43,429 nucleotides of DNA from a virus (lineage: Duplodnaviria; Caudoviricetes), in the IMG/VR virus record IMGVR_UViG_3300044496_000031, positions 1-43,429 of that record; one strand, written 5' to 3'. Positions within the stretch are counted from its first letter, which is position 1, and every line of letters begins with the position of its first letter. A model generated the notes under the pieces. The model had not been told where the DNA came from and did not search any database. It was given only the letters and a program-made list of their open reading frames with translations. The position numbers and the translations under genes are program-made. This document shows, in pieces, positions 1-43,429 of this stretch.

Positions 1-78
1 GCCCGGCGCGGCGGCCGCGGCGGCGCCTGCCGCGGGGTGATTGCCAAGACGAAACAAGCTGAACGATGCCGCTGTGAT
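1..78. repeat. Terminal direct repeat, copy 1 (matches 43352-43429 at 75/78 positions)
   Basis: Direct comparison: mismatches at position 28 (t vs g) and 60-61 (tg vs ac). Confidence 0.95.
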
Positions 79-7600: not shown

Positions 7601-7955
7601 CCGCGGCGAACAGGGAACCCACTTCGGCCAGGCCGTGCAGCGCGCGCCCGACGCCGCCTACAACGTAAGGATTCGGGCGTAGCTTCTGGACCTGCGCGTC
7701 GGTCTTGGCCGCTTCCGCGCGCAGCCACGTCTCGGTGTCGGTGCCGAAAAACTTGTCTGCGGTCATGCCGGCGGGGATCGCCGCGTCGCCGGCGAGCTGC
7801 CCGATTTTGGCGGCCGCGCTGAACAAGCCGCCACCGAAAGCGGTGGGGATACCGCCAAAGGCGCTCGCCGCCATATCCTCGGGCGTTGCTGGATGCAGCG
7901 AAGCGCGATTCGCCTGCGCTGCTTCCTGGCCCGGCGCGATGTCGAAAAAGCTCAT
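4656..7955 (-). CDS. Internal virion/ejection protein with inserted zeta-toxin-like P-loop kinase and ddrB-like ParB domains (polyvalent protein)
   Basis: 1099 aa. Ala/Gly-rich hydrophobic N-terminal region; Walker A FTAGGTGAGKTT, VYDTNM, IVHVYREP and GRTVP; then QARDR...ESPQMDFGAP...VVGGNGR. Confidence 0.75.
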   Translation of the reverse strand: MSFFDIAPGQEAAQANRASLHPATPEDMAASAFGGIPTAFGGGLFSAAAKIGQLAGDAAIPAGMTADKFFGTDTETWLRAEAAKTDAQVQKLRPNPYVVGGVGRALHGLAEVGSLFAAGFAAGGPPGAAALAGTVEGYSGVKTGLAEGLDPRTALLKGTVEGVATAAGAYLPVSVAGAPLWQSAAFGAGVNLVFGAENRGLTSDLLRRAGYPDQAAQYQTLDKSGMAADLILGLAFGTWAHVAQPKQMSGAVPEVKPMDAPAPSTVDAAMVVKSELHNRDVAGVAADIETANTVNDAIARETMALLSGEPRVDVVEHPEAKFVEDPNGSVAQVQKATAELIAEEPAPAPIAAPVERVRYTPSEKDLTPEERAVEQAFGARPLAELEAAYAKIPETEGGKVLSTDVARELDPAYLKNRSERSRAVHEPASGFIKQLYAKRLAEPPAEGQEAAVLFTAGGTGAGKTTGLEAPGMGAVKDAAQIVYDTNMNKYESAKAKVDQALEAGKEAIIVHVYREPVDALRGAMRRAMRQEGEFGSGRTVPLAEHLDTHVGSREVMLQLEREYADRAGSVHFRFVDNSRGVGKQTLVNVDFLAGKEHNRTVLRDQLRQALEDAKAKGQISDAVYRGFAQGEPALPAAEPGLQARGQGRGGDGGRAETERPQQLTPAATGKSDTVKVGDKYEKVTWALVDADQVAASVGKGETQARDRTRAASEAQVAKIAGALDFRLLSESPQMDFGAPTLAADGRVVGGNGRVLAVQRAYEDGTGDTYRAPLIAALPRFGIDPKAAEGMGRPMLVRILGEGVDVRAAAIASNEGAGMRMSLLEQAPVDAGRLPDLNGFYVPEDGNLNAPANRDFVMNWIGKFPGTEQAALVDAVGALSQEGMIRLRNAVLFKAYGDNPTLQRLVELADPGAKNVGNALTKAGPPVAAARDAIRRGDLHPVDPLPDVLAAVEKFSQLKSEGTRTADFLAQGELMGPSMTPEARAILAFLDANTRSARAMSDMVAGMYRELERAGNPKQADFLGAEVPTVPDLVAAGIRYAGEPGVLSGSLFDAADSFPGRAGAPRSPASAMHKAQSRADQAEADAPLFETAVNCEKAAA

Positions 7956-27867: not shown

Positions 27868-28082
27868 GGTGCGATCTCTGGGCGAGGCAGGACGCCGGCG
27901 CCTGGGTAGCGTTTGAGCATTTCGGCTTGGGATGCTGGTGGGCACATGAAAACCTCGACCTCCTCGCCGCCTGGTTTGCGTACGAGCCACCATTCGCGGG
28001 CGATTTGGCGTTCGATGCGGTTGGCTGCGGCCTGGCTGATCGCCATGGCTCGAGCTTGGAGGTCGTCGATTGCGGTGGTCAT
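27864..28082 (-). CDS. Hypothetical protein
   Basis: ATGA-coupled to the replication initiator; 72 aa. Confidence 0.6.
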   Translation of the reverse strand: MTTAIDDLQARAMAISQAAANRIERQIAREWWLVRKPGGEEVEVFMCPPASQAEMLKRYPGAGVLPRPEIAP

Positions 28083-28813
28083 GCGCGTCGCCTGGCGTTG
28101 GCAGCGGTGTGCACGCGGTCTGCGAACAGCTCATCGCTCTCGCCTTGGATGCGAGGCATTCCGAGGGTTTGAGCGGTGGCGCTGACCCAATCCGGTGAGC
28201 TCCAATTCGCCGAGGGTTTTCTGCCTTTGACCCCTCCCGATTTATCGGGAATGCTTGTGCCGTTGCTCCCCTGCCGCGCGTCACCTTCACCAAACTCTAA
28301 GGCAGGTTTTAAGTGCTTTTCAGAAGCAAATGCAGAAGAAGAAGAAGGGGGGGGTTCCAAGGGGGGTTCCAAAAGCCCCTTATCTGCGTGAATTAAGGGG
28401 GGTTGAATATCCCCCGTTGAATTACGTGGCCTGCCCCCCTTCGCACCGTGTTCAGCGCCTTTGATTCCGTGCTCGGCGCCGGCCGAACCGCCTGCCGCGC
28501 GGACGTTGCGCAGGAGCTCGTCCTTGACCATGCGGCGCGAGAAGATGATGCCGGCCGCGTCGCGCGAGTACACGCCGGCGTCCTCGAGCTCGGTCATAAG
28601 GCGCGAGCACTCACGCTCGGACAGGCCGACCAGGCGCCCGAGCTGCGCCGGTGTCATGGCCTTCCCGTTCACGACCAGGTGCCCATAGGGCTCGCACTCG
28701 TGCATTACGCAAAGCATTTCAAGCCACAGGCCGCGCGCGGTCAGGGAGCACGATTGCAGAGCGGCGTCCTTGCGCCAATCGGCCGGGTAGAACTGGAAGG
28801 CGGGGCGTTTCAC
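28079..28813 (-). CDS. Phage replication initiator (lambda O-like position)
   Basis: MKRPAFQFYPADWR.D..LQSCSL.ARGLW.EMLC.MH, IFSRRMV, KGGRP and a low-complexity middle with internal repeats. Confidence 0.8.
   Translation of the reverse strand: MKRPAFQFYPADWRKDAALQSCSLTARGLWLEMLCVMHECEPYGHLVVNGKAMTPAQLGRLVGLSERECSRLMTELEDAGVYSRDAAGIIFSRRMVKDELLRNVRAAGGSAGAEHGIKGAEHGAKGGRPRNSTGDIQPPLIHADKGLLEPPLEPPPSSSSAFASEKHLKPALEFGEGDARQGSNGTSIPDKSGGVKGRKPSANWSSPDWVSATAQTLGMPRIQGESDELFADRVHTAANARRRA
28345..28441. repeat. Iteron-like repeats, putative replication origin inside the initiator gene
   Basis: GGGGGGTTCCAA twice, AAGGGGGGTTGAAT, opposed C-runs, AT-richer context. Confidence 0.55.
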
Positions 28814-29947: not shown

Positions 29948-30450
29948 GCGTCCACCAGGCGGCCGGGGAATTCAGTGCCAAGGGAGAGCCGCAACAACGC
30001 GCTCCGGTTGATCTCATCCCACGCGACGAGGCACGAGGGCGCGCCGGCATTGGCTGTTGCGCGCAGGCCCGAGCCGAAGTGGAAATTGATGCGGCCGCGC
30101 AGGAAATAGACCGCTGACGCCTTGCCCCAAATGCTATCGAAAAAGTGCTGCGTCTCGGTGCGCGCGAATATCAAGGCGATCGCGTTGCCGTGGGCCGCGC
30201 AGCGTGCGAGCCAGCGCGCGACGGAATTGTATGGCGGGTTGCACCAAACGCGGCCGCGCCACGGCAGATTGAGCCCGTTATCCTCGATGGTGAAATGCCG
30301 CTCGGCGGTCGGCCAGGGCCGCGCTACCGGCGCGCATGGATCAAGGTCGAAATGCCCGAGCGCACGCAGCAACGCCGGCGGCGTCAGCCATTCGTTTGTG
30401 GTCGCGCGTGGGCTATGGTGCCCGCCAATGCCGAGGGACAATGAGGTCAA
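29944..30450 (-). CDS. Phage N6-adenine DNA methyltransferase
   Basis: EWLTP, FDLDPCA, catalytic VWCNPPY, ARTET and FLRGRI; TTG start at 30450 with AGGAG RBS. Confidence 0.88.
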   Translation of the reverse strand: MTSLSLGIGGHHSPRATTNEWLTPPALLRALGHFDLDPCAPVARPWPTAERHFTIEDNGLNLPWRGRVWCNPPYNSVARWLARCAAHGNAIALIFARTETQHFFDSIWGKASAVYFLRGRINFHFGSGLRATANAGAPSCLVAWDEINRSALLRLSLGTEFPGRLVDA

Positions 30451-31067
30451 GCGATCTCCTCGAGCTCGACGACGCACGTCGCGCGCTTGCTGAACCTGCG
30501 CTCTATGATTAGCTTGTCGATTTGGCTGTCGTCGTGATACGCGCCTGCGTACATGAGGGCATCCTCGAGCGCCTTGATGCGGTTCGAAATGTCCTGGCGA
30601 ATATTGTTGGCCTGGTAGAACGCAGCGCGCAGGCAGATTCGGCCCTCGAGCGGGGGCACCCTGCCCTCGGGTTGCCGTGTGCGAGCGCGCACCAGTGCGA
30701 TCACTTGCGAGCGAAATTCGCGCTGCTCGTCGTGTAGGAATTTGCGCCCGTTCTTGGCTGTGCCGTAGAGCGCATTGACGGAAGGCGGCAGCGGTAGCTC
30801 GAAGGTCATTCGGCGCAGCGACAAGAGCGTCCTTTGTGGGGCCACGGCATCCGGGGACTCGTCAGGGAAGAAGCCGATTCGCGGCTCCTTATGCGCTAAG
30901 TTTTGGGGAGTAGCGCAATCCCCGGCGCCGTGGCTTTCGGTGTCGACGACCTCGGCGCGCATGGTGCCTATGCCGACGTCGACGAAATCTTTTTTCGCGT
31001 ACTCGCGCGCGCGCTTCGCCTGGTGCTCCTCGAGCTGCTCCTCGGTCCAGCGCATCACGTTGCTCAT
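30447..31067 (-). CDS. rusA: RusA-family Holliday junction resolvase with an N-terminal extension
   Basis: LPLPPSVNALY and QDISNRIKALEDAL...DDSQI; start re-called at ATG 31067. Confidence 0.85.
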   Translation of the reverse strand: MSNVMRWTEEQLEEHQAKRAREYAKKDFVDVGIGTMRAEVVDTESHGAGDCATPQNLAHKEPRIGFFPDESPDAVAPQRTLLSLRRMTFELPLPPSVNALYGTAKNGRKFLHDEQREFRSQVIALVRARTRQPEGRVPPLEGRICLRAAFYQANNIRQDISNRIKALEDALMYAGAYHDDSQIDKLIIERRFSKRATCVVELEEIA

Positions 31068-31372
31068 TTCGGTATGTCTCCCCAATTGAGCACGCTGTCG
31101 CCTTCGTCGGGGCGCGATAGCTTCTCGATCCCCCACTGTTTCAGCGCCGCGTAGGTGTGCGCATCGAAGCATTGCGAATCGACCGGCACGGGTTTCAACC
31201 CGAGCGCGGTGAGGGTGAGTGCGATGCGCTCCCAATTCGTGCGCTGCACGGTGGAATCATCGACGCCGAGCGTGAGCGCGACGGGGCCGAGGCCGACGAC
31301 CGCGAGGCGATGCAACATAACGCCTTGAGTCTTGCGTGTACGTGCATCGAGTGTGCGCGATGGTTCGGCCAT
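31064..31372 (-). CDS. CII-like transcriptional regulator
   Basis: HTH-like VALTLGVDDSTVQR and LTALGLKPVP, as in lambda CII; directly after cro. Confidence 0.7.
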   Translation of the reverse strand: MAEPSRTLDARTRKTQGVMLHRLAVVGLGPVALTLGVDDSTVQRTNWERIALTLTALGLKPVPVDSQCFDAHTYAALKQWGIEKLSRPDEGDSVLNWGDIPK

Positions 31373-31382
31373 GCCCTGCCCT

Positions 31383-31589
31383 TCACGCTGCTGTTGCTGT
31401 CGGTTCGCCGAAGATGTCGGGCCGCATTTTCACGGCCGGAATGCCGTACAGGCCCTCAAGCTTCTTGCAGAATTCGGCCGGGATGCGCGCCTTCTGCCAC
31501 TTGTTCACGGCCTGGGGCGTGATCCCGCACGCGGCCGCGATCGCTTGCTGTGATCCGGCCCTCTCGACGAGCTCGTCAAATACGTCCAT
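31383..31589 (-). CDS. cro: Cro/YdaS-like HTH repressor
   Basis: MDVFDELVERAGSQQAIAAACGITPQAVNKWQK.RIPA...MRPDIFG; start re-called at ATG 31589. Confidence 0.85.
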   Translation of the reverse strand: MDVFDELVERAGSQQAIAAACGITPQAVNKWQKARIPAEFCKKLEGLYGIPAVKMRPDIFGEPTATAA

Positions 31590-31596
31590 GGAGCAC

Positions 31597-31625
31597 ATAC
31601 TAAACCGCCCGTTTACGAAAGTCAA
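31597..31625 (-). promoter_or_regulatory. PR-like sigma70 promoter TTGACT-17-TAGTAT
   Basis: -35 at 31625-31620, -10 at 31602-31597; overlapped by two operators. Confidence 0.8.
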
Positions 31626-31636
31626 CCAGCGGTTGC
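31601..31636. promoter_or_regulatory. Operator pair OR (TAAAC-N5-GTTTA at 31601; TCAAC-N5-GTTGC at 31622)
   Basis: 15-bp palindromes 21 bp apart. Confidence 0.75.
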
Positions 31637-31685
31637 TTGTGCCCGTCGCACGAGCGGCGGTCAACACCTGGCCAAGCTGCTCGCC

Positions 31686-31883
31686 ATGGCCTACCCGCGG
31701 CGCGTCTCGCGCGAGCGCCTGCCACGTGATATTGAGGAGGTCGACGACGTGGTCGACAAGCGGACGTGCGGCCAGATTTTCGACACGCTGCCCCGTGACG
31801 AGCGGGCGAAGTGGCTCGAATACGGTGGCCTGCTGGTCGAGCGCCACGCCCCGCGCGGCAAGCCGGCCAAGGTCAAGCAATGA
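31686..31883 (+). CDS. 65-aa protein in the cI position with no recognisable HTH (possible repressor remnant)
   Basis: Divergent from cro and between the operator pairs; the upstream in-frame sequence gives no HTH either. Confidence 0.5.
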   Translation: MAYPRRVSRERLPRDIEEVDDVVDKRTCGQIFDTLPRDERAKWLEYGGLLVERHAPRGKPAKVKQ

Positions 31884-31912
31884 GACGCGGCACCTTTTTT
31901 TTGCATTGAGAC

Positions 31913-31948
31913 TAAACCGGGGGTTGACATTACTAAACGATGGGTTTA
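31913..31948. promoter_or_regulatory. Operator pair OL (TAAAC-N5-GTTGA at 31913; TAAAC-N5-GTTTA at 31934)
   Basis: Same consensus and 21-bp spacing as the OR pair. Confidence 0.78.
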
Positions 31949-31952
31949 CTAT
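31924..31952 (+). promoter_or_regulatory. PL-like sigma70 promoter TTGACA-17-TACTAT
   Basis: Near-consensus hexamers heading the plus-strand early operon; followed by a hairpin at 31961-31979. Confidence 0.88.
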
Positions 31953-31996
31953 GCAGTTGTGGCCTGGATTCGCCGGGCCTGAAAAGGGACCGAGAA

Positions 31997-32161
31997 ATGA
32001 AGCGTTCTTTTCAAGAGTGGATGGCCCTGGTGGACAAGATGATAGCGGCCGCGGTCGGCGTGTCGTCGAACGACCTGCCCGACTGTTGCTATCGCGATTG
32101 GTACGACGACGGCGTCAACCCGTTCCACGCCGCGGCGCGCGCGATCAAGGCGGCCTCATGA
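31997..32161 (+). CDS. Early hypothetical protein (54 aa)
   Basis: ATG at 31997 after AAGGGA; DLPDCCYRDWYDDG motif. Confidence 0.7.
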   Translation: MKRSFQEWMALVDKMIAAAVGVSSNDLPDCCYRDWYDDGVNPFHAAARAIKAAS

Positions 32162-32469
32162 GCGTCCTCAATCCGGTTTTCAACGTCGGAGACGTGCTCT
32201 ACGGCTCTTGGGGCTACGACCAAACAAACGTGGAATTTTTCGAGATCGTCAAGCTCGTCGGGAAATCCACCGTCGAAATAATGGAACGCGGCCACGAAAT
32301 GTTGAGCGGCGGCGGCGCCGAAATGAGCGCCCGCGTGATCCCCGCGAAAGCCTACATCGGGCTCGCGATGCGCAAGCGCATCGACCGCAACGGCCGCGTG
32401 AAGCTGCACGATTTCTGCCGCCTCGCCAAGTGGGACGGCTCGCCCAAATACAAAAGCTGGTACGCATGA
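32158..32469 (+). CDS. Early conserved hypothetical protein
   Basis: ATGA-coupled; VGDVLYGSWGYDQTNVEFFEIV motif. Confidence 0.75.
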   Translation: MSVLNPVFNVGDVLYGSWGYDQTNVEFFEIVKLVGKSTVEIMERGHEMLSGGGAEMSARVIPAKAYIGLAMRKRIDRNGRVKLHDFCRLAKWDGSPKYKSWYA

Positions 32470-32738
32470 AGGCCGCCCGCGTGTCGCCAGTGGCGCAAGC
32501 CTACGCGCGCAGCAAGCCGGGCCGCGAGGCACTGTTCGAGATCGGTCGCGCGATGGAATGCACCGAAGATAAGTGCGGCATCGTGTGGGAGCGTTTCGTC
32601 GTCGGTGGGGAGTCGCTGATTCTCGTGGCCACGCCGCACTGGTGGGACGTGTACGCACCGCTGACCAGTGACGGCGAGATCGCCGCCGTGGTCGCCGCGA
32701 TCAAGGCCCGCGCTGTTGCGGGCAAGGCGGCTGCATGA
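32466..32738 (+). CDS. Early hypothetical protein
   Basis: ATGA-coupled at both ends; starts MKAARVSP. Confidence 0.65.
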   Translation: MKAARVSPVAQAYARSKPGREALFEIGRAMECTEDKCGIVWERFVVGGESLILVATPHWWDVYAPLTSDGEIAAVVAAIKARAVAGKAAA

Positions 32739-33544
32739 ACGCCTACGAGCAGAAACAGGAAGCGCGCCGGTATCGGCTGTTGAGCCGCGCCGCCGCCCTC
32801 GAGGCCCAGGCCGAGAGCGCGAACAAGCGCTCTAACGACCTGGTCGCGGGCATCCCGTTCGGCCAGCCGATTCTCGTTGGCCACCATTCCGAAGGGCGCC
32901 ACCGTCGCACGCTCGAAAAGTCGTGGAACCTCATGGGCAAATTCGTTGCGCTGTCGGCGCAGGCCAAGGAAACCGCGCGCCGCGCCGATGCCGTGGGATC
33001 CGCCGGCGTGTCGTCGGATGACCCCGAGGCGCCCGACAAACTGCGCGCGCAGCTCGCGAAACTCGAAGCGCAACGCTCGCACATGGTCAAAGTCAACAAG
33101 CTCTTTCGCGCCGGCAAGGCGCCCGAGCTCGCGGTCTTGGGCTATGACCTGGAAAAGCTGCGCGTGCAGGTTGCCGCGCAATATTCCTGGGAGCGCGCGC
33201 CCTTCGTCGGTTGGGAGCTCTCGAACCTGGGCGCGAATATCCGCCGCATCAAGGCGCGCATCGAGGAGCTCGACCGCAAGGCGCCGATGATGGAAGCGGA
33301 CAGCGTCGAGCACGACGAGGGCGCATTCGTAGTCGTCGAGAATTTCGAGGCGAACCGGATCCAGTTGAAATTCGCGGGCAAGCCTGCGGCCGCGGTGCGC
33401 GACGTGTTGAAGCGCAGCGGGTTCCGGTGGGCGCCGAGTGAGGGCGCGTGGCAGCGCCAGTTGAAAGACGGAATCGTCGCCTCGGTACGCGGCGGTTATC
33501 TCGGGCAACAAATTCGCGACGCGATCGCAAAGGGGCAAGCATGA
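32735..33544 (+). CDS. DUF3560-like protein
   Basis: IPFGQPILVGHHSEGRHRR, SSDDPEA, LSNLGANIRRIKARI and LKRSGFRWAPSEGAWQR. Confidence 0.8.
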   Translation: MNAYEQKQEARRYRLLSRAAALEAQAESANKRSNDLVAGIPFGQPILVGHHSEGRHRRTLEKSWNLMGKFVALSAQAKETARRADAVGSAGVSSDDPEAPDKLRAQLAKLEAQRSHMVKVNKLFRAGKAPELAVLGYDLEKLRVQVAAQYSWERAPFVGWELSNLGANIRRIKARIEELDRKAPMMEADSVEHDEGAFVVVENFEANRIQLKFAGKPAAAVRDVLKRSGFRWAPSEGAWQRQLKDGIVASVRGGYLGQQIRDAIAKGQA

Positions 33545-33777
33545 AAATCGGCGCGTTTGAAGTCTCGCACGGCGATCGCGTTGCCTTCGTCGACGCGCGC
33601 GGCCAGGAGCGCACTGGCAAGGCGAACGGGCTGCTCTTGTTCCCGACGCATTGCGTCGTCGATATGGGCGGCCAACACGGGACGCCCTACGTCGTCCAGG
33701 CTGATCGGATTCTCTCCGTGCTCGCGCGGCGCAATCGCGGGCAAATGGATCTCCTCGCCGCGTCGGGGGTCGCATGA
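33541..33777 (+). CDS. Early hypothetical protein
   Basis: ATG at 33541 overlaps the previous stop. Confidence 0.6.
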   Translation: MKIGAFEVSHGDRVAFVDARGQERTGKANGLLLFPTHCVVDMGGQHGTPYVVQADRILSVLARRNRGQMDLLAASGVA

Positions 33778-34061
33778 ATCCGATCGACCAAGCACTCGCC
33801 CCGTTCAAGCCGCGCGATCCGAACCTCCGCGAAGGTCCGCGCATCGACGCCTGGCCCACCGACATCGAAGCACTGTGCAAGGAGCTCAGGGTCGGCCGCG
33901 AGCGGATCCGCAGCCTCGAGACGGCGCTCGAGGAGCTGCATGAGCTCGTCGACGACTATGTCGACGTGGTCGATGGCGAGGACGGCCAGCCGATGCCGAA
34001 CATGCCGATGCGCGTGCAGAACATCATCGACGCCGCACTCGGTCGGAGGCCCGCACCATGA
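33774..34061 (+). CDS. Early hypothetical protein
   Basis: ATGA-coupled; 95 aa. Confidence 0.6.
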   Translation: MNPIDQALAPFKPRDPNLREGPRIDAWPTDIEALCKELRVGRERIRSLETALEELHELVDDYVDVVDGEDGQPMPNMPMRVQNIIDAALGRRPAP

Positions 34062-34312
34062 TGCTCGAAGGATGGGACACCGACCCCGGCATGATCGCTG
34101 CGCAACAGGCGCGCGCGTACATCGTCAAACTCTACGATCCGCTTGGGCGAGTGCCCGACCGCTTCCTGACCGCGCGCGGAACGTGGACGGCGTCTCGCGA
34201 TCACGCGCTCATATTCGCAACGGAGCGGCTAGCGTGCGAATCCGCCGGATTCAAAGCGCGGACGCTCGACCTGCGCGAGCTCGATACCTGCGTTGAACGG
34301 TGGGCGCCATGA
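34058..34312 (+). CDS. Early hypothetical protein
   Basis: GGAGG RBS; ATGA-coupled. Confidence 0.6.
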   Translation: MMLEGWDTDPGMIAAQQARAYIVKLYDPLGRVPDRFLTARGTWTASRDHALIFATERLACESAGFKARTLDLRELDTCVERWAP

Positions 34313-34425
34313 GCCGCGACGACATCCGGTGGAGAACGGCGACCGCGTACGCCGAGCGCCTCATCTACGTCGGCGCGGCGGCGCTGATCGTGTGGCTGCT
34401 GGTGTGGCGCGGAGACACTCCATGA
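34309..34425 (+). CDS. 38-aa single-TM peptide (not in the ORF track)
   Basis: MSRDDIRWRTATAYAERLIYVGAAALIVWLLVWRGDTP; ATGA overlaps at both ends. Confidence 0.55.
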   Translation: MSRDDIRWRTATAYAERLIYVGAAALIVWLLVWRGDTP

Positions 34426-34574
34426 ACGTGACTACGTTCCTCACGAAATGGGTGCTCGTGTTCTGCCTGCTGGCCGATCTGCTCGTCTACGCCTGGCTGC
34501 GGTATCCGTGGTGGGCGTGCGGTCTGTGGGCTGCTTCCCTCGTGGGCGCGGTGCGCTACGTGAGGACAAATTGA
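34422..34574 (+). CDS. 50-aa two-TM peptide
   Basis: Start re-called at ATG 34422 with GGAG RBS; hydrophobic throughout. Confidence 0.55.
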   Translation: MNVTTFLTKWVLVFCLLADLLVYAWLRYPWWACGLWAASLVGAVRYVRTN

Positions 34575-34769
34575 ACGCGGTGCGCGAGCTCGTCTTAATC
34601 ATCCGGGTTGCGCAATGCCGCGCCTGCGTGTGGTGGAACGAGCACCAGCTCGAAAGCGCCAGGACCGGACTAGCACAGGCATACAACGCGCTCGACGCAT
34701 CGCGCGCGAATCTCCGAATCCACGACGGGGAGCAGTACCGCCCGCCGTCGTTTTTACTGAAAGGGAACC

Positions 34770-35003
34770 ATGAGCGAATCAAGGATTTACGAAGTACAGG
34801 TAAAGGGCTCGCCGGTGGTGCGCCTGGTCGACGCGGTCAGCGCCGCCCAAGCATTGCGCCACGTGGCTAAACAGCAATTCGAGGTTACGCTGCCGACGAC
34901 GAAGCGCGTCGCCTATCTCATGGGCAAAGGCATCGTACCCGAGGATGCGACACGATTGCCGGCGGATCCGATCGAGGCCAATCAAGCGGGGATTCGAGGG
35001 TGA
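34770..35003 (+). CDS. Hypothetical protein
   Basis: AAGGGA RBS; VRLVDAVSAAQALRHVA. Confidence 0.7.
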   Translation: MSESRIYEVQVKGSPVVRLVDAVSAAQALRHVAKQQFEVTLPTTKRVAYLMGKGIVPEDATRLPADPIEANQAGIRG

Positions 35004-35917
35004 GCCTCGATCGCCGCGGGTTTCTCGGCGGTTCCGACATCGGGCCGTTGATCGGGCAGTCGCCGTACAAGGATGCGTTCGGCCTGTATCTCGAGAAGCG
35101 TGGAGAGATCGAGCCGCCCGAGGAGGAGACGAAGGTGCAGCGGCGCGGCCGGATCCTCGAGCCCGCGATCGGGCAAATGTACGCGGCAGAGCATAACCGC
35201 GTGCTGTTGCCCGGCGAGACGTTCGCCGTCGACGAGCCGTGGCAGCGCGCCCAGGTCGATGCGATCGAGCATTTTACCGACGGCGTGATCGACGTGCGCG
35301 TTCCGGTCGAGATCAAGAGCGCGAGCGAATTCGCGCGCGGCAAGTGGGGCCCATCCGGCACCGACGAAGCGCCGACCGCGTACTGCGCGCAGCTCCATTG
35401 GCAAATGGCGGCTATGCGAGCCCCGTTCGGGCGCATCGTTGCGTTGCTCGGCGCCGATGACCTGCGCGTCTACACGATTGATCGCGATTGGGCGATTGAC
35501 GCCTTCCTGCAGGAGCAGGCGCGCGCGTTCTGGCAGCGCGTTCTCGACGGCAACGCGCCCGAGCCGAATTTTCAACATCCGAGCATCGCCGAAACGCTGT
35601 CGCGACTGTTCCAGAATCCGAAGGCCACCGAGATCCTGCAGGCCACGCCGCAGCTTACCGCCTGGCGCGACGTCATGGTCGAGGCCGGCGAGCAGGAGAA
35701 GCGTTACCAGGGCATCAAAGACGGCGCCAAGGCCCACTTGCTGCACGCGATGGGCAACGCCGCAATCATCAATTTCGGCGAGCAGATGTTCGAGCGCAAG
35801 GTCATCAATCGCGCCGGCTACACGGTGGCGCCGACCACGTACGTCGCCGGCACGCTCAAGAAAAGCACCGTCGCCGGCGCGCTGCCGGCATTACTCACCA
35901 ATGAGGTAGCCGCATGA
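35000..35917 (+). CDS. YqaJ-like recombination exonuclease
   Basis: RRGFLGGSDI...SPY, GRILEP, VEIKS, YCAQLHWQM and FWQRV; adjacent to RecT. Confidence 0.9.
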   Translation: MSLDRRGFLGGSDIGPLIGQSPYKDAFGLYLEKRGEIEPPEEETKVQRRGRILEPAIGQMYAAEHNRVLLPGETFAVDEPWQRAQVDAIEHFTDGVIDVRVPVEIKSASEFARGKWGPSGTDEAPTAYCAQLHWQMAAMRAPFGRIVALLGADDLRVYTIDRDWAIDAFLQEQARAFWQRVLDGNAPEPNFQHPSIAETLSRLFQNPKATEILQATPQLTAWRDVMVEAGEQEKRYQGIKDGAKAHLLHAMGNAAIINFGEQMFERKVINRAGYTVAPTTYVAGTLKKSTVAGALPALLTNEVAA

Positions 35918-36915
35918 GCAACGCAACACTCAAATCGGTTGCAGGTTCGGCCGTCGTCACAGCCGAGAACGATCCCGGCACGTTCCCCGGAATGCTCAAG
36001 GCGTACAAGGCCGAGATCGCGCGCGCGCTGCCGAAGCACATCAACGCCGACCGCATGTGTCGCATCGCGCTGACGTGCTTTCGTCTCACGCCGAAGCTGG
36101 CCGAGTGTCAGCCGGCGAGCGTGTTCGCGGCGCTCATTCAGGCATCGCAGCTCGGACTCGAGCCGGGACTGAACGGCCGCGCGTACCTCATCCCGTACAA
36201 GGCCGAGTGCCAATTCGTGCCGGGCTGGAAGGGCCTGGTCGAGCTCGCCAATCGCACGGGCCGCGCATCGTGCTGGACGGGCGCCGTGTTCGCCGGCGAT
36301 GAATTTGATTTCGCGCTCGGCGATGATCCCTACTGTAAGCACCGTCCGCAAGGTGAGGATGATCCCGAAAAGCTGTCGCACACCTACGCGATCGGGCGCG
36401 TGCGCGGCAACGAATATCCGATCATCGAAGTGTGGCCGAACGCGAAAATTCTCAAGCATCGCAACCGCTACAACAAGGTCGGCCTGAAACATTACTCCTT
36501 CGAGAATTGGGAAATGTACGCGCGCAAGGTGCCGCTACTGCAGGTCTTGAAGTACCTGCCGAGTAGCCCCGAGCTCGAGGCCGCGCTCGCGTTGAACGAT
36601 GCCGCCGAGCTCGGCCTGCGCCAAGGCTTGACGATCGAGGGCGCGCTCGCCAATGCCTACGAGCCGCCGGCGCCACAGCCGCCCGAGAACAAAGAGGGCG
36701 CGGACATCGAGGGCACCGAGGGCACCGAGGCCGCTGGCACAGAAGGCGGCAAGGTGACGCTGTCCTATGCCGCGGTGCGCGAGCAGCTCGACAAGGCGAC
36801 AACGCGCGACGGGCTCGACCAGGCGGCCGCGTCGATCGACCTGGTTGTCAATCTCACCCAACAGAAAGAGCTCACGGCGATCTACAAGGAGCGCAAGGCG
36901 GCGCTCGAGGCGTGA
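35914..36915 (+). CDS. recT: RecT-family single-strand annealing protein
   Basis: ALPKH..ADR, PKLAEC...S, QLGLEP...AYLIPY, GWKGLVELA.R and EMYARK. Confidence 0.92.
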   Translation: MSNATLKSVAGSAVVTAENDPGTFPGMLKAYKAEIARALPKHINADRMCRIALTCFRLTPKLAECQPASVFAALIQASQLGLEPGLNGRAYLIPYKAECQFVPGWKGLVELANRTGRASCWTGAVFAGDEFDFALGDDPYCKHRPQGEDDPEKLSHTYAIGRVRGNEYPIIEVWPNAKILKHRNRYNKVGLKHYSFENWEMYARKVPLLQVLKYLPSSPELEAALALNDAAELGLRQGLTIEGALANAYEPPAPQPPENKEGADIEGTEGTEAAGTEGGKVTLSYAAVREQLDKATTRDGLDQAAASIDLVVNLTQQKELTAIYKERKAALEA

Positions 36916-37097
36916 CCGTACCGATCGAGCGGCAGGTGCAATGCGTCGAGCGCGAGCTCAAGTTTCGCCGTCGCGTGTACGCGCGCCGAGTGGTCGAAAA
37001 GAGGATGACGAAAACACAAATGGACGACGAGCTCGAGGCGATGGAGGCCGTGCTCGCGACGTTGCAGTCGATCGCCGAAGGTCAACGCCTCATCTAA
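36912..37097 (+). CDS. Conserved small phage protein
   Basis: QVQCVERELKFRRRVYARRV; GTGA-coupled. Confidence 0.75.
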   Translation: MTVPIERQVQCVERELKFRRRVYARRVVEKRMTKTQMDDELEAMEAVLATLQSIAEGQRLI

Positions 37098-37107
37098 GGA
37101 GAATCAC

Positions 37108-37371
37108 ATGCCCAACGATTTCGACCTCACGAGCCCAGGCAAGCCGGGCGAGATTCCCGCCGGCGTCGTCGAGGAGCTGCGCGTCTTGCGCACGAACGCA
37201 AACGAATCGGTCGCGATATTCCGGGACGCCGTGAAGGTCCAGGCCGAGAAGCACAAGATCAAGCCGAAGGCGCTGCGCCGCTACGTCAACGCGCTCGCAA
37301 GCGACAAGGTCGACGAGACGCGCGCCGAGACGGTGGACCTCGAGAAGCTGCTCGGAGTGGCCGAGGTATGA
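37108..37371 (+). CDS. Small helical protein, possibly a GapR/T4 DsbA-like DNA binder
   Basis: AAGGAG RBS; FRDAVKVQAEKHKIKPKALRRYV pattern; the fold call is weak. Confidence 0.6.
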   Translation: MPNDFDLTSPGKPGEIPAGVVEELRVLRTNANESVAIFRDAVKVQAEKHKIKPKALRRYVNALASDKVDETRAETVDLEKLLGVAEV

Positions 37372-38582
37372 AAGCCGCCGCGCTCGTGTTGCTGTTGGTG
37401 TCGACGCTCGCCGGCGGTCAAACCTTCGAGGGATCGGTCGGAGGGTGGGCGCTCAACGCGCCGGCCGGCGATTCGTTCTTTCGCAATTACGGGACGGTCG
37501 ACGCCGCCGGAAATTACGCCTACCAGTATTTCAGTCTCTACAACGCGGCCGGCGTGCGCACGTCGAGCTACACAGAAAAGCCAGCCTTCCGCGCGGCGCG
37601 TATCGTCATCGTCAACGGCGCGAGCTACGCGCAATTCGGCGACGGCACTTGCGCTGCGTTCCCGCTCGGCGCACAGACGCCGGTTGTGTGCCCCCCGTTG
37701 CCACCGCCACCGCCGCCGCCCCCGCCGCCTCCACCGCCACCGCCGCCCCCGCCGTTGCCGGTATTCAATCCCGATCCAAGCCTGGTCAAGACGAAAAAAG
37801 TAATCGTCGTTCCGCTGCGCTATCAAGCGCCGCCGAGCACTGACCCCGTTGCGATCGCTGCCTACAACACTTCGCTTCCGCTGGTCACGCAGGCCGCGCT
37901 GCAGGGCACGTTCGCATCCATCGCCGCCTGGTGGCCATCGGAAACTTACGGGTTGATTCAGCTCGCCGTTACGGTGCTGCCAGAGGTCACGCTGCCGGGA
38001 TCGCCAGGGTGCGACAGCTCCAAGGTGTCGACCGCGGCCTATGTCGCGGCCGCCGGCAAACCGTACGACGTTTTGATCGGCGTGACCCCTTACGCCTGCT
38101 GGCAATATCACATGCGCACGATGGGGAGCGTCATCGTCAGCACGAACACGTACCAGGATTCAAAGGGCACCTACGCGCACGAGATCGGCCACGCCTTCGG
38201 GATCTTCCACAACGCAATTCGGATGCCGACATATTTCGAGTATGGCTCTGGCACGGATCAAATCGGGAGCCTCTCGAATAACCTGCTGCACTTGCTCGGC
38301 GACCACAAGAACCGGCTCGGCGTGTTGACGTTCAAGCCGTGCGCGAGCACGACGTTGCGCTCGATCTATCTCTACCCCGACGCCATTTGGTGCACGAATT
38401 ACGTCCTCGAATACCTCGCGGATTGGGGCCAGGTGTGGGTGCACAAGCGCGAATACGTGAACACGGGCAGTTACGGCGGCAGCGACACGACCGACGTCGC
38501 CAAGCTCTCGCCGGGGCAGAGCTACAGCGCCGGCGGCTACACGTTCACGCACAACGGCGGCGGGAAGGTGACGGTGCGATGA
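37368..38582 (+). CDS. Secreted zinc metalloprotease (metzincin HExxHxxGxxH) with a poly-Pro linker
   Basis: Signal peptide MKAAALVLLLVSTLAGG; 18 consecutive Pro; HEIGHAFGIFH at 38178-38210 followed by EYG..TD.IG. Confidence 0.78.
   Translation: MKAAALVLLLVSTLAGGQTFEGSVGGWALNAPAGDSFFRNYGTVDAAGNYAYQYFSLYNAAGVRTSSYTEKPAFRAARIVIVNGASYAQFGDGTCAAFPLGAQTPVVCPPLPPPPPPPPPPPPPPPPPPLPVFNPDPSLVKTKKVIVVPLRYQAPPSTDPVAIAAYNTSLPLVTQAALQGTFASIAAWWPSETYGLIQLAVTVLPEVTLPGSPGCDSSKVSTAAYVAAAGKPYDVLIGVTPYACWQYHMRTMGSVIVSTNTYQDSKGTYAHEIGHAFGIFHNAIRMPTYFEYGSGTDQIGSLSNNLLHLLGDHKNRLGVLTFKPCASTTLRSIYLYPDAIWCTNYVLEYLADWGQVWVHKREYVNTGSYGGSDTTDVAKLSPGQSYSAGGYTFTHNGGGKVTVR
37701..37754 (+). repeat. CCN x18 poly-proline tract
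   Basis: Direct reading of the sequence. Confidence 0.9.
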
Positions 38583-39148
38583 GCTCAAACGTACAAGACG
38601 CCTTCTGTCGCGCGATTGGTCACATGACTACGCCTGACAAGGTGAGCGATGCCCCCAAGTGTTGGATTTGCGGCAACCATCATCCAGAGCCGCACCCAAG
38701 CCGGGAGGCCGATTCTCTATGCCCGATCGATCCAAATCACGCGCCCGCATACGCCGCCCCGCCAGCCCCGGATTGGCGCGTGTGCTTCGTGTGCCCGTCG
38801 CCGGACGTGTGCGAGCGCGCGGGCAAGTGTCAGAGCCCAGCGCGTGCGGGGCCGCTATGTGCGGTTATCCCCGGCGTCTGGAATGATCCGGCGACAGCGC
38901 CAGTGCCGCCCACCGCGCCCGAGGCGGAGCCGTATGTTGACCGGCGCATCGGCACAGCCGTCTACATTCCAACTGATTGGACGCCCACCGCCAGCAAGCA
39001 GCCAGCGCAGAGCGATGCGGAGCGCCTTGCGCAGGCGGTCGGGCTGCTGCGGGACGTAGCGATGCAGCCCATACCTCTTGATGTGGATGACGCTATCCGC
39101 GCGTTCTTGGTCGAATTTGACCGCGACGCAAAGACAGGGGGCGGGTAG
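38579..39148 (+). CDS. Cys/Pro-rich hypothetical protein, last early gene
   Basis: Start re-called at ATG 38579 (ATGA overlap); CWICGNHH and CFVCPSPDVC motifs. Confidence 0.55.
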   Translation: MSSNVQDAFCRAIGHMTTPDKVSDAPKCWICGNHHPEPHPSREADSLCPIDPNHAPAYAAPPAPDWRVCFVCPSPDVCERAGKCQSPARAGPLCAVIPGVWNDPATAPVPPTAPEAEPYVDRRIGTAVYIPTDWTPTASKQPAQSDAERLAQAVGLLRDVAMQPIPLDVDDAIRAFLVEFDRDAKTGGG

Positions 39149-39274
39149 GTGCTGACCGTTTATCGGAAGCGACTTGATCGAGGCCGCTAGCGGTGGGGTC
39201 GAGTGGGGCCCGGTGGGCTAGGTGAGCGCCGGTGAAGTGTCGAGAAGAGCCCCTAAGTCACTGTATTAGAAGGC

Positions 39275-39314
39275 GCCCGGGTGGCGAAACAGGTAAACGC
39301 AAGGGACTTAAAAT
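39275..39314 (+). other. 5' half of tRNA-Leu(UAA), truncated just after the anticodon loop (attP-core-like)
   Basis: GCCCGGG-TG-GCG-AAACAGGTAAA-CGC-A-AGGGA-CTTAAAA-T gives the acceptor 5' strand, D-arm, anticodon 5' stem and UAA loop. No CCCT, T-arm or CCA follows. Confidence 0.75.
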
Positions 39315-39329
39315 GCGCCGTGACGCCAG

Positions 39330-39345
39330 TGTTCCACGTGGAACG
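39330..39345. promoter_or_regulatory. Chromosomal-type parS palindrome tGTTCCACGTGGAACg
   Basis: Perfect 14-bp palindrome matching the bacterial parS consensus TGTTNCACGTGNAACA at 15/16 positions; intergenic. Confidence 0.7.
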
Positions 39346-39380
39346 GTGGGGCCCTGGTGGGATCGGGCCCGGGGAAGGTG

Positions 39381-39698
39381 TCAGGATGCTTGAGCTATCT
39401 CCGTGCCGGCGGGAGGCGCAGCGTTCGCCAGCGCCCCGATTTCGGCGGCAGGAATCAATTTCTTGCCCTCCTCCTCGAGCCGCTTCGATTCGGCCTCGTC
39501 GGCCATCCGGCGCTTGACCCCGTCGGCGAAGTCCGTCTGCTCCTTGTTGAGCTTTTCGAGGCGCAGGGTCGCGTGATTGAATTCGTGCTGCGCGCTCTCG
39601 ATGCTCTTGGCCAGGAGCTCGCGCTGCAGGTTGTAGTTTTCCATCTTGAGCTTTTCGAGCTCGGTGGGTTCCGGCTTGAGGGGAATGGCGTCGGGCAT
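39381..39698 (-). CDS. Coiled-coil protein after tail fibre 2 (possible fibre chaperone)
   Basis: GGAG RBS; 105 aa; last late gene. Confidence 0.7.
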   Translation of the reverse strand: MPDAIPLKPEPTELEKLKMENYNLQRELLAKSIESAQHEFNHATLRLEKLNKEQTDFADGVKRRMADEAESKRLEEEGKKLIPAAEIGALANAAPPAGTEIAQAS

Positions 39699-39710
39699 GG
39701 GTGTCTCCGG

Positions 39711-41318
39711 TTAGGGGTTGAAGCACGGAATTCTAAGCGAGAAACCATCCACGATTACGTGAATGTACGTGCGCACGGTGGCCGGCACGCCGCCCGCGCC
39801 GCCCGCGGTCGCGGTGTTGCTGTTCTTGCCGCCGGTGGTCGCGCAGGCAAATACCCAATTCGTCGTGGTGTCGAACATGCTGATTGCGTCGTTGTTGTTC
39901 TGGCGCATCCGGCCGTTCGACAGGTTGACCTCGAAGCGGATCGTCGAAATGTTGGTCAGCTCGAAATTGCCGTTGACGTTGTTCCAGCGCATGTTGCACT
40001 GATTGATGGGCGTGGCGGTTTGCGCCTGCGCCTGGCCGCCAAGGTAAATGTAGTCGTTGGCCTTGACCATGAGCGCCGCGGCCGAGTAGCTGCCCCACGT
40101 GAGATCAATGCCGACCGTGAACGGCGTGAGCGCGCCGGTGCCGCCAGGTATGCCACCGTTGGCGATGAGCGGGGAGCCGAGTTGAATGCCGCGCTTCAAG
40201 CCCGCCGCGCCGGTGGTGTGCACGATGATCGCGCCGAAGTCGACAGGCTGCGAAGCGTTGGAGCGAATTACGGTGCCCGCGGCGATGCCGCCCGCCACGT
40301 TCTTGAACACTTCCGCACTGAACCCGTAGGTCGAATGGCTGAAACCGGCGAAGGTGCCTGAGTGGTAGGCATCGACGTGCACGCCGAACGCGCCCTGGTC
40401 GGTGCCGAGGTTGTTGATGCCGAAGTAACCCGAGACAGCGCCCGGCGAGCTGAACGTGCGAACCGCCTGCGTTTCGACCTGCGCCCGAATGCCACCGCCG
40501 GCGAAGCCGTCGCCGCCCGCCGTGCCCGCGATCGCGTGCTGGATGTAGATGCCGAAGTTGCCGCCCTCGGAGGCGTCGACCGGGCCGTCGAGCGAGACGT
40601 CGGTGCGCATTCTCATGTCGAGCATCGCGACGTAGTCGCTGGCCAGGAGGATCCCGGTGTCGGTGATGTCGACGCCGCCCTGCAGCGATTTCATGGTGTG
40701 ACTCGGGAGGGTGCGGTGCGCCTGCTTGTCCCACGTGTGATGCCCGGTCCAAGCGTAATCGAGGCTCGTGTCGATACCGCTGGCGCTCGAGCTCACGGTG
40801 ATGAGCGACGCGGTTTCGGTGACGATGGTGGAGCCGCCGCCGGTGATCCGCTTTAGCTGGACGACGTTGCCGACGGTGCCGGCGTAGACGTTGCCGCCGA
40901 CGCCGCCGATGTTCATAAAGGTCTGCGTGCCGCCATTGGTCAGCGTGAGAATGCCCTGCTGCATTTGCTGACAGATCATCGTGAGGTAGTCCCAATCCCT
41001 CTCGGCTGTCTCGCTGTTGAAAGTGTCGTGCGCGATCCAATTGTCGAGCTGCAGGATCGGGACAATGCGCTCGATGCGCAAAGTGAAATTGAGCGGCGGT
41101 GCCACGAACGCGGTCAGGAAGCCGCCCGATAAACTGCCCTCTCCCGTGAGCGTGTAGTCAGTGCCCTCGACCCAGGCCACTTCGTTCAGCGGGACGAGCG
41201 TTTCGATAAGTAGCACGCGAATGTGCGCGTTCGAAATCCAGTAGAAGGGGATCGCGAAAAGCGTGCTAAGGCCGTCGCCAAAATACTGCTGAATAGAGAG
41301 CTGGCTGGTGACTGTCAT
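39711..41318 (-). CDS. Tail fibre/spike protein 2 (T7 gp17-like anchor)
   Basis: N-terminus is paralogous to 432-2105 (FAIPFYWI...GTDYTL...ETAERDWDYL..ICQQ); the C-terminal part differs. Confidence 0.85.
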   Translation of the reverse strand: MTVTSQLSIQQYFGDGLSTLFAIPFYWISNAHIRVLLIETLVPLNEVAWVEGTDYTLTGEGSLSGGFLTAFVAPPLNFTLRIERIVPILQLDNWIAHDTFNSETAERDWDYLTMICQQMQQGILTLTNGGTQTFMNIGGVGGNVYAGTVGNVVQLKRITGGGSTIVTETASLITVSSSASGIDTSLDYAWTGHHTWDKQAHRTLPSHTMKSLQGGVDITDTGILLASDYVAMLDMRMRTDVSLDGPVDASEGGNFGIYIQHAIAGTAGGDGFAGGGIRAQVETQAVRTFSSPGAVSGYFGINNLGTDQGAFGVHVDAYHSGTFAGFSHSTYGFSAEVFKNVAGGIAAGTVIRSNASQPVDFGAIIVHTTGAAGLKRGIQLGSPLIANGGIPGGTGALTPFTVGIDLTWGSYSAAALMVKANDYIYLGGQAQAQTATPINQCNMRWNNVNGNFELTNISTIRFEVNLSNGRMRQNNNDAISMFDTTTNWVFACATTGGKNSNTATAGGAGGVPATVRTYIHVIVDGFSLRIPCFNP

Positions 41319-42664: not shown

Positions 42665-43429
42665 TCAGCCTGCGGCCAGCGATACGGTGCCGGCAAAATT
42701 GGTTGTGTTCACAGTAGGCTTGATGAGCTCAAGGAAACACAAGCACGCATCGTCGAACACTCGCGCCAGGCCGAATGTGCTGTTGATTCCGTCATAGGTG
42801 CAGGCGACGTTCGCGATGGGGCACGGTAGAAATGCAAGCGCGTGGCCGATGACGAAATCGAGCGCGCCGGTGATCGAGGCCGAGTTTTGCATTTGCGTAA
42901 GCGCCTGAACGCCGAAGTCTCCCGCCGCGAGTGGGAAGAACCAGGTCCCGAGCGGCACGTCGATGCGATTGGCGTGGCAAGCACTGATGCCCACCGAGCT
43001 CGGCATTGTCGCGCCCGCATTCCCGTCCTGGTCGGTGTATTGACAGACGGTCCAGTTGTGCGCTCCCCCTCCCAACGCGGCGCCGGGGCCGACCTCGGGA
43101 AACATGAAATTCCCGCCCGCGTAGTCTGGATCCGTCGGCGTCGTGCTTTGGTAGCGCGTCGGCACGCCGGTCACGGCCTCGGTTGCCGTGCTGCTCGCGG
43201 TCTTGGCCACGGCGAAAAGTCGATCGTAGAGGAGCAGCGTGTTATTCGACTGCGAGCTCATTGGCTGTGCAGTCGTAATGTGCGTGGTGTCGCCGCCGGC
43301 CGGGTTGGTGAAGATAAGCGCCCCGGTGGTGGCCGACGTCGGCGCGGCCCCGCCCGGCGCGGCGGCCGCGGCGGCGCCGGCCGCGGGGTGATTGCCAAGA
43401 CGAAACAAGCACAACGATGCCGCTGTGAT
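42665..43429 (-). CDS. 3' part of the origin-spanning paralog A (continues from 429..1)
   Basis: Open to the window end and in frame with 1-429 through the terminal overlap. Confidence 0.85.
   Translation of the reverse strand: MTAASLCLFRLGNHPAAGAAAAAAPGGAAPTSATTGALIFTNPAGGDTTHITTAQPMSSQSNNTLLLYDRLFAVAKTASSTATEAVTGVPTRYQSTTPTDPDYAGGNFMFPEVGPGAALGGGAHNWTVCQYTDQDGNAGATMPSSVGISACHANRIDVPLGTWFFPLAAGDFGVQALTQMQNSASITGALDFVIGHALAFLPCPIANVACTYDGINSTFGLARVFDDACLCFLELIKPTVNTTNFAGTVSLAAG
43352..43429. repeat. Terminal direct repeat, copy 2
   Basis: gcccggcgcggcggccgcgg...gatgccgctgtgat, same as 1-78 apart from 3 nt. Confidence 0.95.

Follow-up and report, generated by a model that had tools for sequence, protein, structure and literature searches.

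Mycobacteriophage D29, which two reports derive from a temperate, StarStuff/L5-like parent by a natural change to lytic growth (PMC5712189, PMC6550527), is the closest described parallel to the phage analyzed in this work, being a case of the same kind of event, a repressor deletion (PMC5712189). D29 lost 3.6 kb, keeps a working integrase and has stoperators, whereas our phage lost 157 bp at cI, has no integrase that was found, and combines a lambda-type PR/PL-cro-cII switch with a host-type parS site. Immunity regions of the lambda type have cro and an HTH repressor gene in divergent orientation between PR and PL, repeated operators, and cII located past cro. Lambda-dv plasmids contain PR-cro-cII-O with the origin, are autoregulated by Cro, and carry no late or lysis genes. 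Pseudomonas phage AF and phage phiV10, podophages of the epsilon15/phiV10 type, are temperate; they carry cI, and their PL arm ends with an integrase gene. Plasmid prophages of the RedRock, P1 and N15 type encode both ParA and ParB of their ParABS systems. Bacillus phage phi29 has five parS sites that are read by host Spo0J and used for spore entrapment (PMC2731898).

The window, i.e. the entire analyzed stretch of 43,429 nucleotides, is the genome of an epsilon15-like podophage of sediment origin, and the CheckV completeness of the record is 100 (Table 1). Its terminase is 47-49% identical to those of AF and phiV10 over 98% of the length, and podophage virion genes, a lambdoid early region and RecE/RecT are shared with both phages, while the broken cI and the lack of a detected integrase set the window apart. 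Downstream of PR, the late gene set is complete and shares its strand, and the genome ends join in frame within one late-region gene, giving a circle. An assembly artefact, with CI or an integrase residing in missing sequence, has a minimal probability. IMG/VR classes the record as linear and the 78-nt terminal overlap includes three mismatches, but against this stand the in-frame joining inside a single gene, the cI junction bridged in three sequencing runs beyond the possible source run and in contig L017, and the att site bridged in runs X3 and X11.

Table 1. Coordinates of the features discussed in the text
Feature	Position	Strand	Basis or remark
O-like replication initiator	28079..28813	-	PHROG 13246 replisome organizer, E 5e-6
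Iteron-like AACCCCCC repeats inside the O-like gene	28345..28404	-	repeat family D10; putative origin
CII-like activator	31064..31372	-	PHROG 725, E 6e-10; PHROG 191, E 3e-5
Possible PRE-like site in the cII start	31332..31364	+	TTGC-N6-GTGC, then weak -10; weak
Cro	31383..31589	-	Pfam YdaS 1e-13, P22_Cro 9e-6, HTH_3 2e-4
PR promoter	-35 TTGACT 31625-31620, -10 TAGTAT 31602-31597	-	sigma70-like site
PR with operators OR1 (31602-31614) and OR2 (31623-31635)	31597..31635	-	promoter and palindrome search
Deletion junction, 3-bp GCG microhomology	31657..31660	+	alignment to L015, L016
65-aa ORF, cI remnant without DNA-binding domain	31686..31883	+	clusters with P0002; model HTH helices are residues 6-59
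PL promoter	-35 TTGACA 31924-31929, -10 TACTAT 31947-31952	+	sigma70-like site
PL with operators (31914-31926, 31935-31947)	31914..31952	+	same as in cI-intact sisters
YqaJ exonuclease and RecT, PL arm	35000..36915	+	annotation by family match
13-codon mini-ORF directly 3' of the last PL gene	39149..39190	+	sequence; possible integrase scar (see text)
Orphan att-like site: arm-like motif (39254-39267) and tRNA-Leu(UAA) 5' half (39275-39314)	39254..39314	+	sequence
Host-type parS	39330..39345		1 mismatch to consensus; 0 of 100 shuffles match
Terminal overlap	1..78 with 43352-43429		75/78 identical, same reading frame

We conclude that the window likely represents a recent turn to lytic growth by an otherwise ordinary temperate phage, and not a new way of persisting in cells, i.e. 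likely a natural clear-type derivative, which is an already known kind of event. The best explanation of the locus, to which we assign a probability of about 0.78, is the deletion in cI: because the 157 bp removed include the DNA-binding half of the repressor gene, a repressed prophage likely cannot form and growth is likely lytic only. Such a case would represent an environmental temperate-to-lytic change caught at base-pair resolution, and is a caution that a switch or att site left orphaned in a viral contig often reflects a recent deletion.

The earlier note had stated that no HTH repressor occupies the cI slot. No HTH is encoded there; however, the slot holds the 3' half of cI and not an unrelated ORF. 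By cluster look-up, the 65-aa ORF is an exact C-terminal match to residues 58-122 of a 122-aa repressor, P0002, which is present intact in two sister contigs (L015 and L016, 3.1-3.6 kb long). Taken alone, the ORF belongs to no family in Pfam or PHROGs, a homolog search returned only the ORF itself, and a single 13-residue viral match and an Atlas score of 0.76 were obtained. Where the switch region is shared, the sisters are 97.3-98.9% identical to the window; what sets them apart is a 157-bp insert that contains a fifth operator. A single deletion thus took OR3, the likely -10 box of PRM and, from cI itself, 48 codons as well as the start codon, and the model helices 6-20, 24-31 and 35-44 of P0002 are all inside these missing codons. 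Two small deletions were considered and rejected, since the alignment contains one deletion and the chance 'ARRT' match results from a 12-bp repeat. Close relatives separated from the window by a simple recent deletion, which the earlier note had named as speaking against a switch maintained without CI, were therefore found for cI, and its first suggestion, a recently lytic derivative of a temperate phage, is supported by the intact cI and third right operator of both sisters.

On sequence and predicted structure, P0002 is a short XRE-type repressor. Its matches to HTH_23 (5e-5), HTH_3 (1e-3) and PHROG 4779 (4e-6) are weak but consistent, all family matches being below the Pfam cut-offs. The predicted structure comprises a four-helix N-terminal domain (pLDDT 68-84) and a C-terminal part with pLDDT <50; XRE-family proteins were the top matches in a fold search, none of them at E<=0.001, and a repressor alignment against PDB gave no sequence match. 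The intact allele matches the lambda-type immunity region, which is broken in the window; P0002 differs in having no S24 self-cleavage domain, and PF00717 is absent from the genome.

The deletion junction is bridged without differences in four of eight runs (X1, possibly the source, X2, X4 and X5). The same junction occurs on a second haplotype, L017, that differs in 38 of 3833 columns. Run X11 contains the intact allele, and its loose end equals the first bases of the deleted sequence. The occurrence of the deletion allele on two backgrounds, together with cI-intact sisters in a like habitat, makes the system suitable for population studies of lifestyle switching. Between the remnant and the intact allele there are three synonymous and no non-synonymous changes, which are too few to call and do not demonstrate decay.

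The remnant is likely a silent stump. That it is instead expressed, e.g. from a CII-driven PRE, and poisons homoimmune CI as a dominant-negative subunit appears highly improbable. This alternative would suit the loss of the DNA-binding helices, predicted C-terminal helices left in an open frame from Met58, the lack of amino acid changes, the retention of cII and a weak PRE-like site, and the two backgrounds of the allele. However, the deletion took the likely -10 box of PRM, Met58 has no purine-rich ribosome site before it, and an oligomeric role has to be assumed for a C-terminal part of low pLDDT. The PRE-like call is based on the lambda CII motif, and with 44 one-mismatch sites genome-wide the site in the cII start is suggestive by position alone.

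The remainder of the switch agrees with what had been claimed before, namely PR and PL promoters with four operators, cro and cII-like genes, and an O-like initiator with iterons. PR and PL make up two of the three sigma70-like sites within positions 30000-40500. The operator-like 13-bp palindromes, starting at 31602, 31623, 31914 and 31935, are arranged in two pairs with 21-bp spacing, and the pairs together form a 39-nt inverted repeat. Their count of four compares with a shuffle mean of 0.04 (maximum of 1 in 2000), with the motif derived from these very sites. Cro is the sole HTH_3 match of the genome in a six-frame search and is identical at the protein level in L015 and L016. IMG/VR searches with Cro and RecT yielded no close relatives, although near records may have been kept from these searches. 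No RNA entry was listed, a result without bearing on expression. The O-like initiator (PHROG 13246, E 5e-6) is 44-59% identical in its N-terminal part to 10 viral loci, and three of the four genome copies of the AACCCCCC/GGGGGGTT words fall within its gene. The retained PR, PL, four operators, cro and cII may be explained by Cro tuning early transcription during lytic growth, or alternatively by a loss too recent for decay.

The intact allele has three right and two left operators. In the window OR3 is absent, and the centre of OR2 has two substitutions (31628-31629) that go with the deletion allele, while OR1 and both left operators are identical to those of the cI-intact sisters in the alignment. 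Because of these unchanged operators, CI made by lysogens of the temperate sisters would probably still repress the deletion phage. This argues for a helper-dependent temperate life, in which sister CI provides repression and an integrase acting in trans provides integration at the half-tRNA att site. Sediment metagenomes contain both allele types, four of 64 biallelic sites exhibit all four combinations with cI state, as recombination would produce, and D29 is reported to form lysogens given L5 repressor (PMC5712189). Even so, we consider helper dependence distinctly unlikely: no helper integrase is known, contigs of the unrecombined att site occur in X1, X3 and X11, no phage-host junction is distinguishable among the loose ends listed, and the four-gamete sites may be assembly chimeras. 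It can also be an occasional event rather than a way of life.

As the earlier note had observed, no recombinase is evident: whole-genome six-frame searches with PF00589, PF00239 and PF07508, as well as with PF00717, PF02195 and PF13614, were empty at E<=10. The attP-like locus that it had proposed was verified as a half-tRNA att site without an adjacent tyrosine integrase and is likely a vestige. Its 14-nt upstream element is an arm-like motif. The tRNA-Leu(UAA) 5' half ends one base past the anticodon loop, a search of the genome revealed no T-loop 3' half, and host tRNA 3' halves are seen among the loose ends at 39314. Tyrosine-integrase att sites that target tRNA genes and carry a 5' tRNA fragment account for 159 of 3919 Islander islands (PMC4383910), and the window shares with tRNA-targeting attP sites both this fragment and the break at the anticodon loop. 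The same break point is found beside tyrosine integrases in L021, L152 and L161. In these three loci the integrase is located 110-460 nt downstream of the half-tRNA on the opposite strand, whereas the window has parS and a late gene there. Exact searches with the half-tRNA yielded no matches in GTDB genomes, and the half-tRNA followed by parS had no viral matches.

Other origins of the half-tRNA were weighed. That the half is what remains of a complete phage tRNA, as in the Xanthomonas phages Langgrundblatt and Pfeifenkraut, is less likely in view of the break point. A group I intron exon was rejected (Rfam was empty, and the downstream sequence is unlike L142 and other intron cases), as was a structured RNA in the att-parS stretch (z = -0.16). 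The mini-ORF next to the last PL gene has no similarity to four integrases and was dismissed as an integrase scar.

The parent of the window phage may already have been without an integrase, because colinearity of the X11 contig excludes the slot used in L021, L152 and L161. Colinearity of this contig extends over 39155-39926, a stretch without an integrase; 38902-39154 is bridged by none of the listed pieces. In none of the close relatives was an integrase seen, which counts against the preferred explanation. Among viral records that share O, RecT or Cro, a tyrosine integrase is present in six of 13, and in four of the five near-complete ones.

The claimed parS site was also borne out (Table 1). 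It matches the P. aeruginosa in vivo site at 15 of 16 positions (PMC5098823). Unlike the RedRock, P1 and N15 systems, the genome encodes no ParA or ParB detectable with PF13614 or PF02195, and a ddrB-ParB domain sits inside a virion protein. The arrangement is phi29-like in that a chromosomal-type parS is present with no par genes of its own, but there is one site instead of five, it adjoins the att vestige, and ParB binding is a prediction. X11 keeps att and parS unchanged, yet is without the PL-proximal genes of the window (zero cover at 32173-32463 and 32755-33045; its joint skips 32738-33540). Since X11, which holds the cI-intact type, already has parS, this site appears to predate the cI loss. 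Its likely role is to dock host ParB in the course of infection, as in lytic phi29, and a plasmid state is not required.

The earlier note had further proposed that Cro alone, perhaps with the 65-aa ORF, throttles both promoters while host ParB handles segregation. This is unsupported, as the ORF is a stump whose likely -10 box and native start are gone, and parS was already present with the cI-intact type. The corresponding carrier state, in which Cro limits PR and O and a replicating plasmid is segregated through parS, would resemble lambda-dv in its PR, cro, cII and O with origin. Although parS, PR, Cro and an iteron-bearing O are all still intact, we judge it very unlikely. The complete late gene set downstream of PR separates the window from lambda-dv, one deletion from a cI-intact parent accounts for the arrangement, and parS is both apparently older than the deletion and, in phi29, a feature of a lytic phage (PMC2731898).

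An unlikely but broader proposal concerns the sisters: cI-intact relatives without an integrase may keep a CI-repressed, non-integrated state via host ParB at parS, with att already vestigial, the window phage being a lytic offshoot and the two types recombining within the same sediments. If true, this would suggest that a lambdoid phage can maintain lysogeny with the help of host ParB. One difficulty is that CI would silence PR and the O-like initiator, and a separate replication route would be needed.

Viral contigs commonly carry host-type parS, with approximately 4,500 stretches compared to 64 for a control word. An integrase was found in one of 26 parS-bearing viral records versus four of 29 control records; the difference was not significant (Fisher p = 0.36), and parS was rejected as a sign that an integrase is lacking. 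The rate of one in 26 fits lytic use and non-integrating lifestyles equally.

Two sister contigs, L015 and L016, carry an intact repressor gene; relative to them, 157 bp are missing from the window at one junction, formed via a 3-bp GCG repeat. The deleted piece contains OR3, a fifth operator that overlaps the start codon, as well as the ATG, 48 codons and the larger part of the likely PRM -10, a GACAAT box. OR1 and the two left operators are as in the sisters, OR2 differs at two bases in its centre, and the Cro protein is the same. All switch parts listed in the earlier note are present. Its first option, a recently lytic derivative, holds: the sisters carry intact cI and the window is one deletion away. 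Its headline, a temperate switch kept without CI, is not supported. We conclude that the window phage is likely a natural repressor-deletion derivative of a temperate phage, a kind already known.

The 65-aa ORF in the cI slot shares a 90% cluster with the 122-aa sister protein P0002 and corresponds to its residues 58-122. A six-frame search of the window for S24 was empty at E<=10 and the only HTH_3 match is Cro, as had been anticipated, but the slot itself holds a repressor remnant. P0002 has sub-threshold HTH matches in residues 4-63. Its AlphaFold model, based on a 4-sequence alignment, has a mean pLDDT of 56, with helices at 6-20, 24-31, 35-44 and 49-59 reaching 68-84 and the C-terminal part below 50. 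No Foldseek match to this model was found at E<=0.001; the best rows are XRE-type domains including ClgR, HipB, SinR and P22 c2. Taking into account these HTH matches and folds, and the position of the gene between PR and PL, oriented away from cro, we infer that P0002 is a short repressor of the CI type that lacks an S24 domain and would act by repression. Two more distant relatives (P0018 and P0019, one of them on a 38.9-kb contig) are 74% identical, and their gene calls begin at the recognition helix.

Searches for tyrosine integrase, resolvase and serine recombinase in all six frames were likewise empty at E<=10, in agreement with the earlier note, as were those for ParB and ParA families; each of these families, and S24 as well, gave matches in at least 6 and up to all 14 of the control genomes. 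Four integrases compared by tblastn with the closed window sequence gave a best E of 0.21. The sequence itself shows that the window has lost the HTH, OR3 and native start, and no integrase or par genes were found. In lambda, CI holds the early promoters off, Cro tunes lytic early transcription and CII serves establishment. By analogy, PR and PL could not be held off without CI, Cro would moderate early transcription during lytic growth, CII would have no useful role in establishment, and the retained operators would remain binding sites for the CI of a sister lysogen. The lambda-dv plasmid, under Cro control, offers a comparison; passages of PMC3017604 and PMC8313558 contain nothing on this control. 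A documented parallel is D29, which like the window has a 5' repressor deletion via a 3-bp repeat, and which has homoimmune temperate relatives and forms lysogens once repressor is supplied (PMC5712189 and PMC6550527, in part). Oenophage OE33PA is described as a further 'ex-temperate' case (PMC9867325, in part).

Coordinates of features in the window
Feature	Position	Strand	Remark
1099-aa virion-region protein	4656-7955	-	ddrB-like ParB domain (E 2e-24), Zeta-toxin-like (E 7e-7)
sigma70-like promoter match	21860-21833	-	around major capsid gene
sigma70-like promoter match	20722-20694	-	around major capsid gene
cI deletion junction	31659/31660		
65-aa ORF	31686-31883	+	cI slot
First PL genes	32004-33540		swapped cassettes relative to L015/L016
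Stretch skipped in L016	32738-33540		L016-like joint in X11
404-aa protein	37368-38582	+	PL arm
Stretch colinear with X11 contig	39155-39926		
5' half of tRNA-Leu(UAA)	39275-39314		ends one base past anticodon loop

A metagenome scan with P0002 returned five loci. The gene is intact in L015 and L016 and in its short form in L017; the other two are distant matches to the N-terminal part, with no DNA-level relation to the window. L017 has the same deletion junction and its last 2,045 bp are identical to the window, with 38 differing columns further left; all four combinations with cI state occur at 4 of 64 biallelic sites. The shared junction and these combinations suggest that the deletion arose once and then recombined with a wider pool, a pattern that chimeric assembly could mimic. 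Of 24 matching sequencing runs, eight were examined for the junction. Contigs span it without differences in X1, a possible source, X2, X4 and X5 (X1, X2 and X4, which come from the same year and habitat, may be one campaign), a loose end in X11 shows the allele to be intact there, and no piece among the matches listed bridges it in X3, X9 and X15. As to whether relatives share the losses and keep parS, the cI deletion recurs in L017 but L015 and L016 are cI-intact, and X11 appears to be so; parS is kept in X11. At the start of the PL arm the deletion type carries DUF5419, a 103-aa gene and DUF3560, and L016 has other small genes there.

The window parS matches the in vivo P. aeruginosa site at 15 of 16 positions (PMC5098823, in part), and is not a chance match. 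Its 15-base core is estimated to occur in 4,500 viral stretches versus 64 for one permuted control. Among the first 80 records listed, integrase was found in 1 of 26 parS records of at least 30 kb versus 4 of 29 controls chosen likewise (p = 0.36), and G066, one of the 13 related records taken up below, combines a parS-type word with integrases. Host Spo0J acts on five parS sites of phi29 (PMC2731898, in part). Among titles and abstract openings, no study was found that deals with host-type parS in phages of proteobacteria, which does not prove absence.

The T-loop 3' half of the tRNA was not found in the window genome. A break-point pattern search yielded one viral and 38 genome loci, many of them whole or intron-bearing tRNAs by ARAGORN. 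Phmmer with the L021 integrase over all 39 matched L021, L152 and L161; Pfam confirmed integrase in the same three among 24 ORFs scanned (23 of 51 near 18 hand-picked loci, plus that of L021), 110-460 nt downstream of the half-tRNA on the opposite strand. Together with 5' tRNA fragments in 159 of 3919 Islander islands (PMC4383910, in part), these provide precedent for an att site. X11 appears to contain the cI-intact type only, since the PL-proximal genes of the window have no cover and the L016-like joint is present. Its colinear contig has seven differences, none in att or parS; therefore a sister integrase, if any, would have to lie upstream of 39155, where no piece among the matches listed bridges, or elsewhere, which counts against a tidy integrase-loss story. 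This contig starts 6 nt past the stop of the last PL gene, at the start of a 13-codon mini-ORF, possibly a scar. Using O, RecT or Cro as query yielded 13 less closely related records; six of them have a tyrosine integrase, including four of the five near-complete ones.

Six loci (L142, L143, L146, L147, L155, L170; Steroidobacter, Thiohalophilus and uncultured Gammaproteobacteria) have intron-bearing tRNA-Leu(UAA) of 220-284 nt by ARAGORN, with introns that look like group I. In L154, L162, L167 and L168 the 5' half is followed ~120-140 nt on by a complete gene copy, possibly as 5'-fragment island remnants. Xanthomonas phages Langgrundblatt1 (L246, 4008-4092) and Pfeifenkraut (L247, 4001-4085) have tRNA-Leu(UAA) and tRNA-Gln calls that their listed annotation does not contain; those for tRNA-Gln overlap annotated CDS.

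The window is the full IMG/VR record (43,429 bases, CheckV completeness 100%, classed as linear). It was treated as a closed circle because 75 of the terminal 78 bases are identical between both ends, which join into a single gene in a single frame. All runs covering at least half of it are sediment metagenomes. It encodes podophage virion genes, with a terminase 47-49% identical to those of Pseudomonas phage AF and phiV10, and a lambdoid early region with cro, cII-like, RusA, Dam methylase and O-like genes on the minus-strand arm and YqaJ and RecT on the plus-strand arm. We recognised no antiterminator of the Q or N type in this genome. The 1099-aa protein is likely an injected internal protein rather than a partition ParB. 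The 404-aa protein starts with a signal-peptide-like stretch and has a long linker of poly-proline, an HEXXHXXGXXH motif and weak Astacin and Reprolysin matches; a putative secreted zinc-protease-like gene is unusual content for an early operon.
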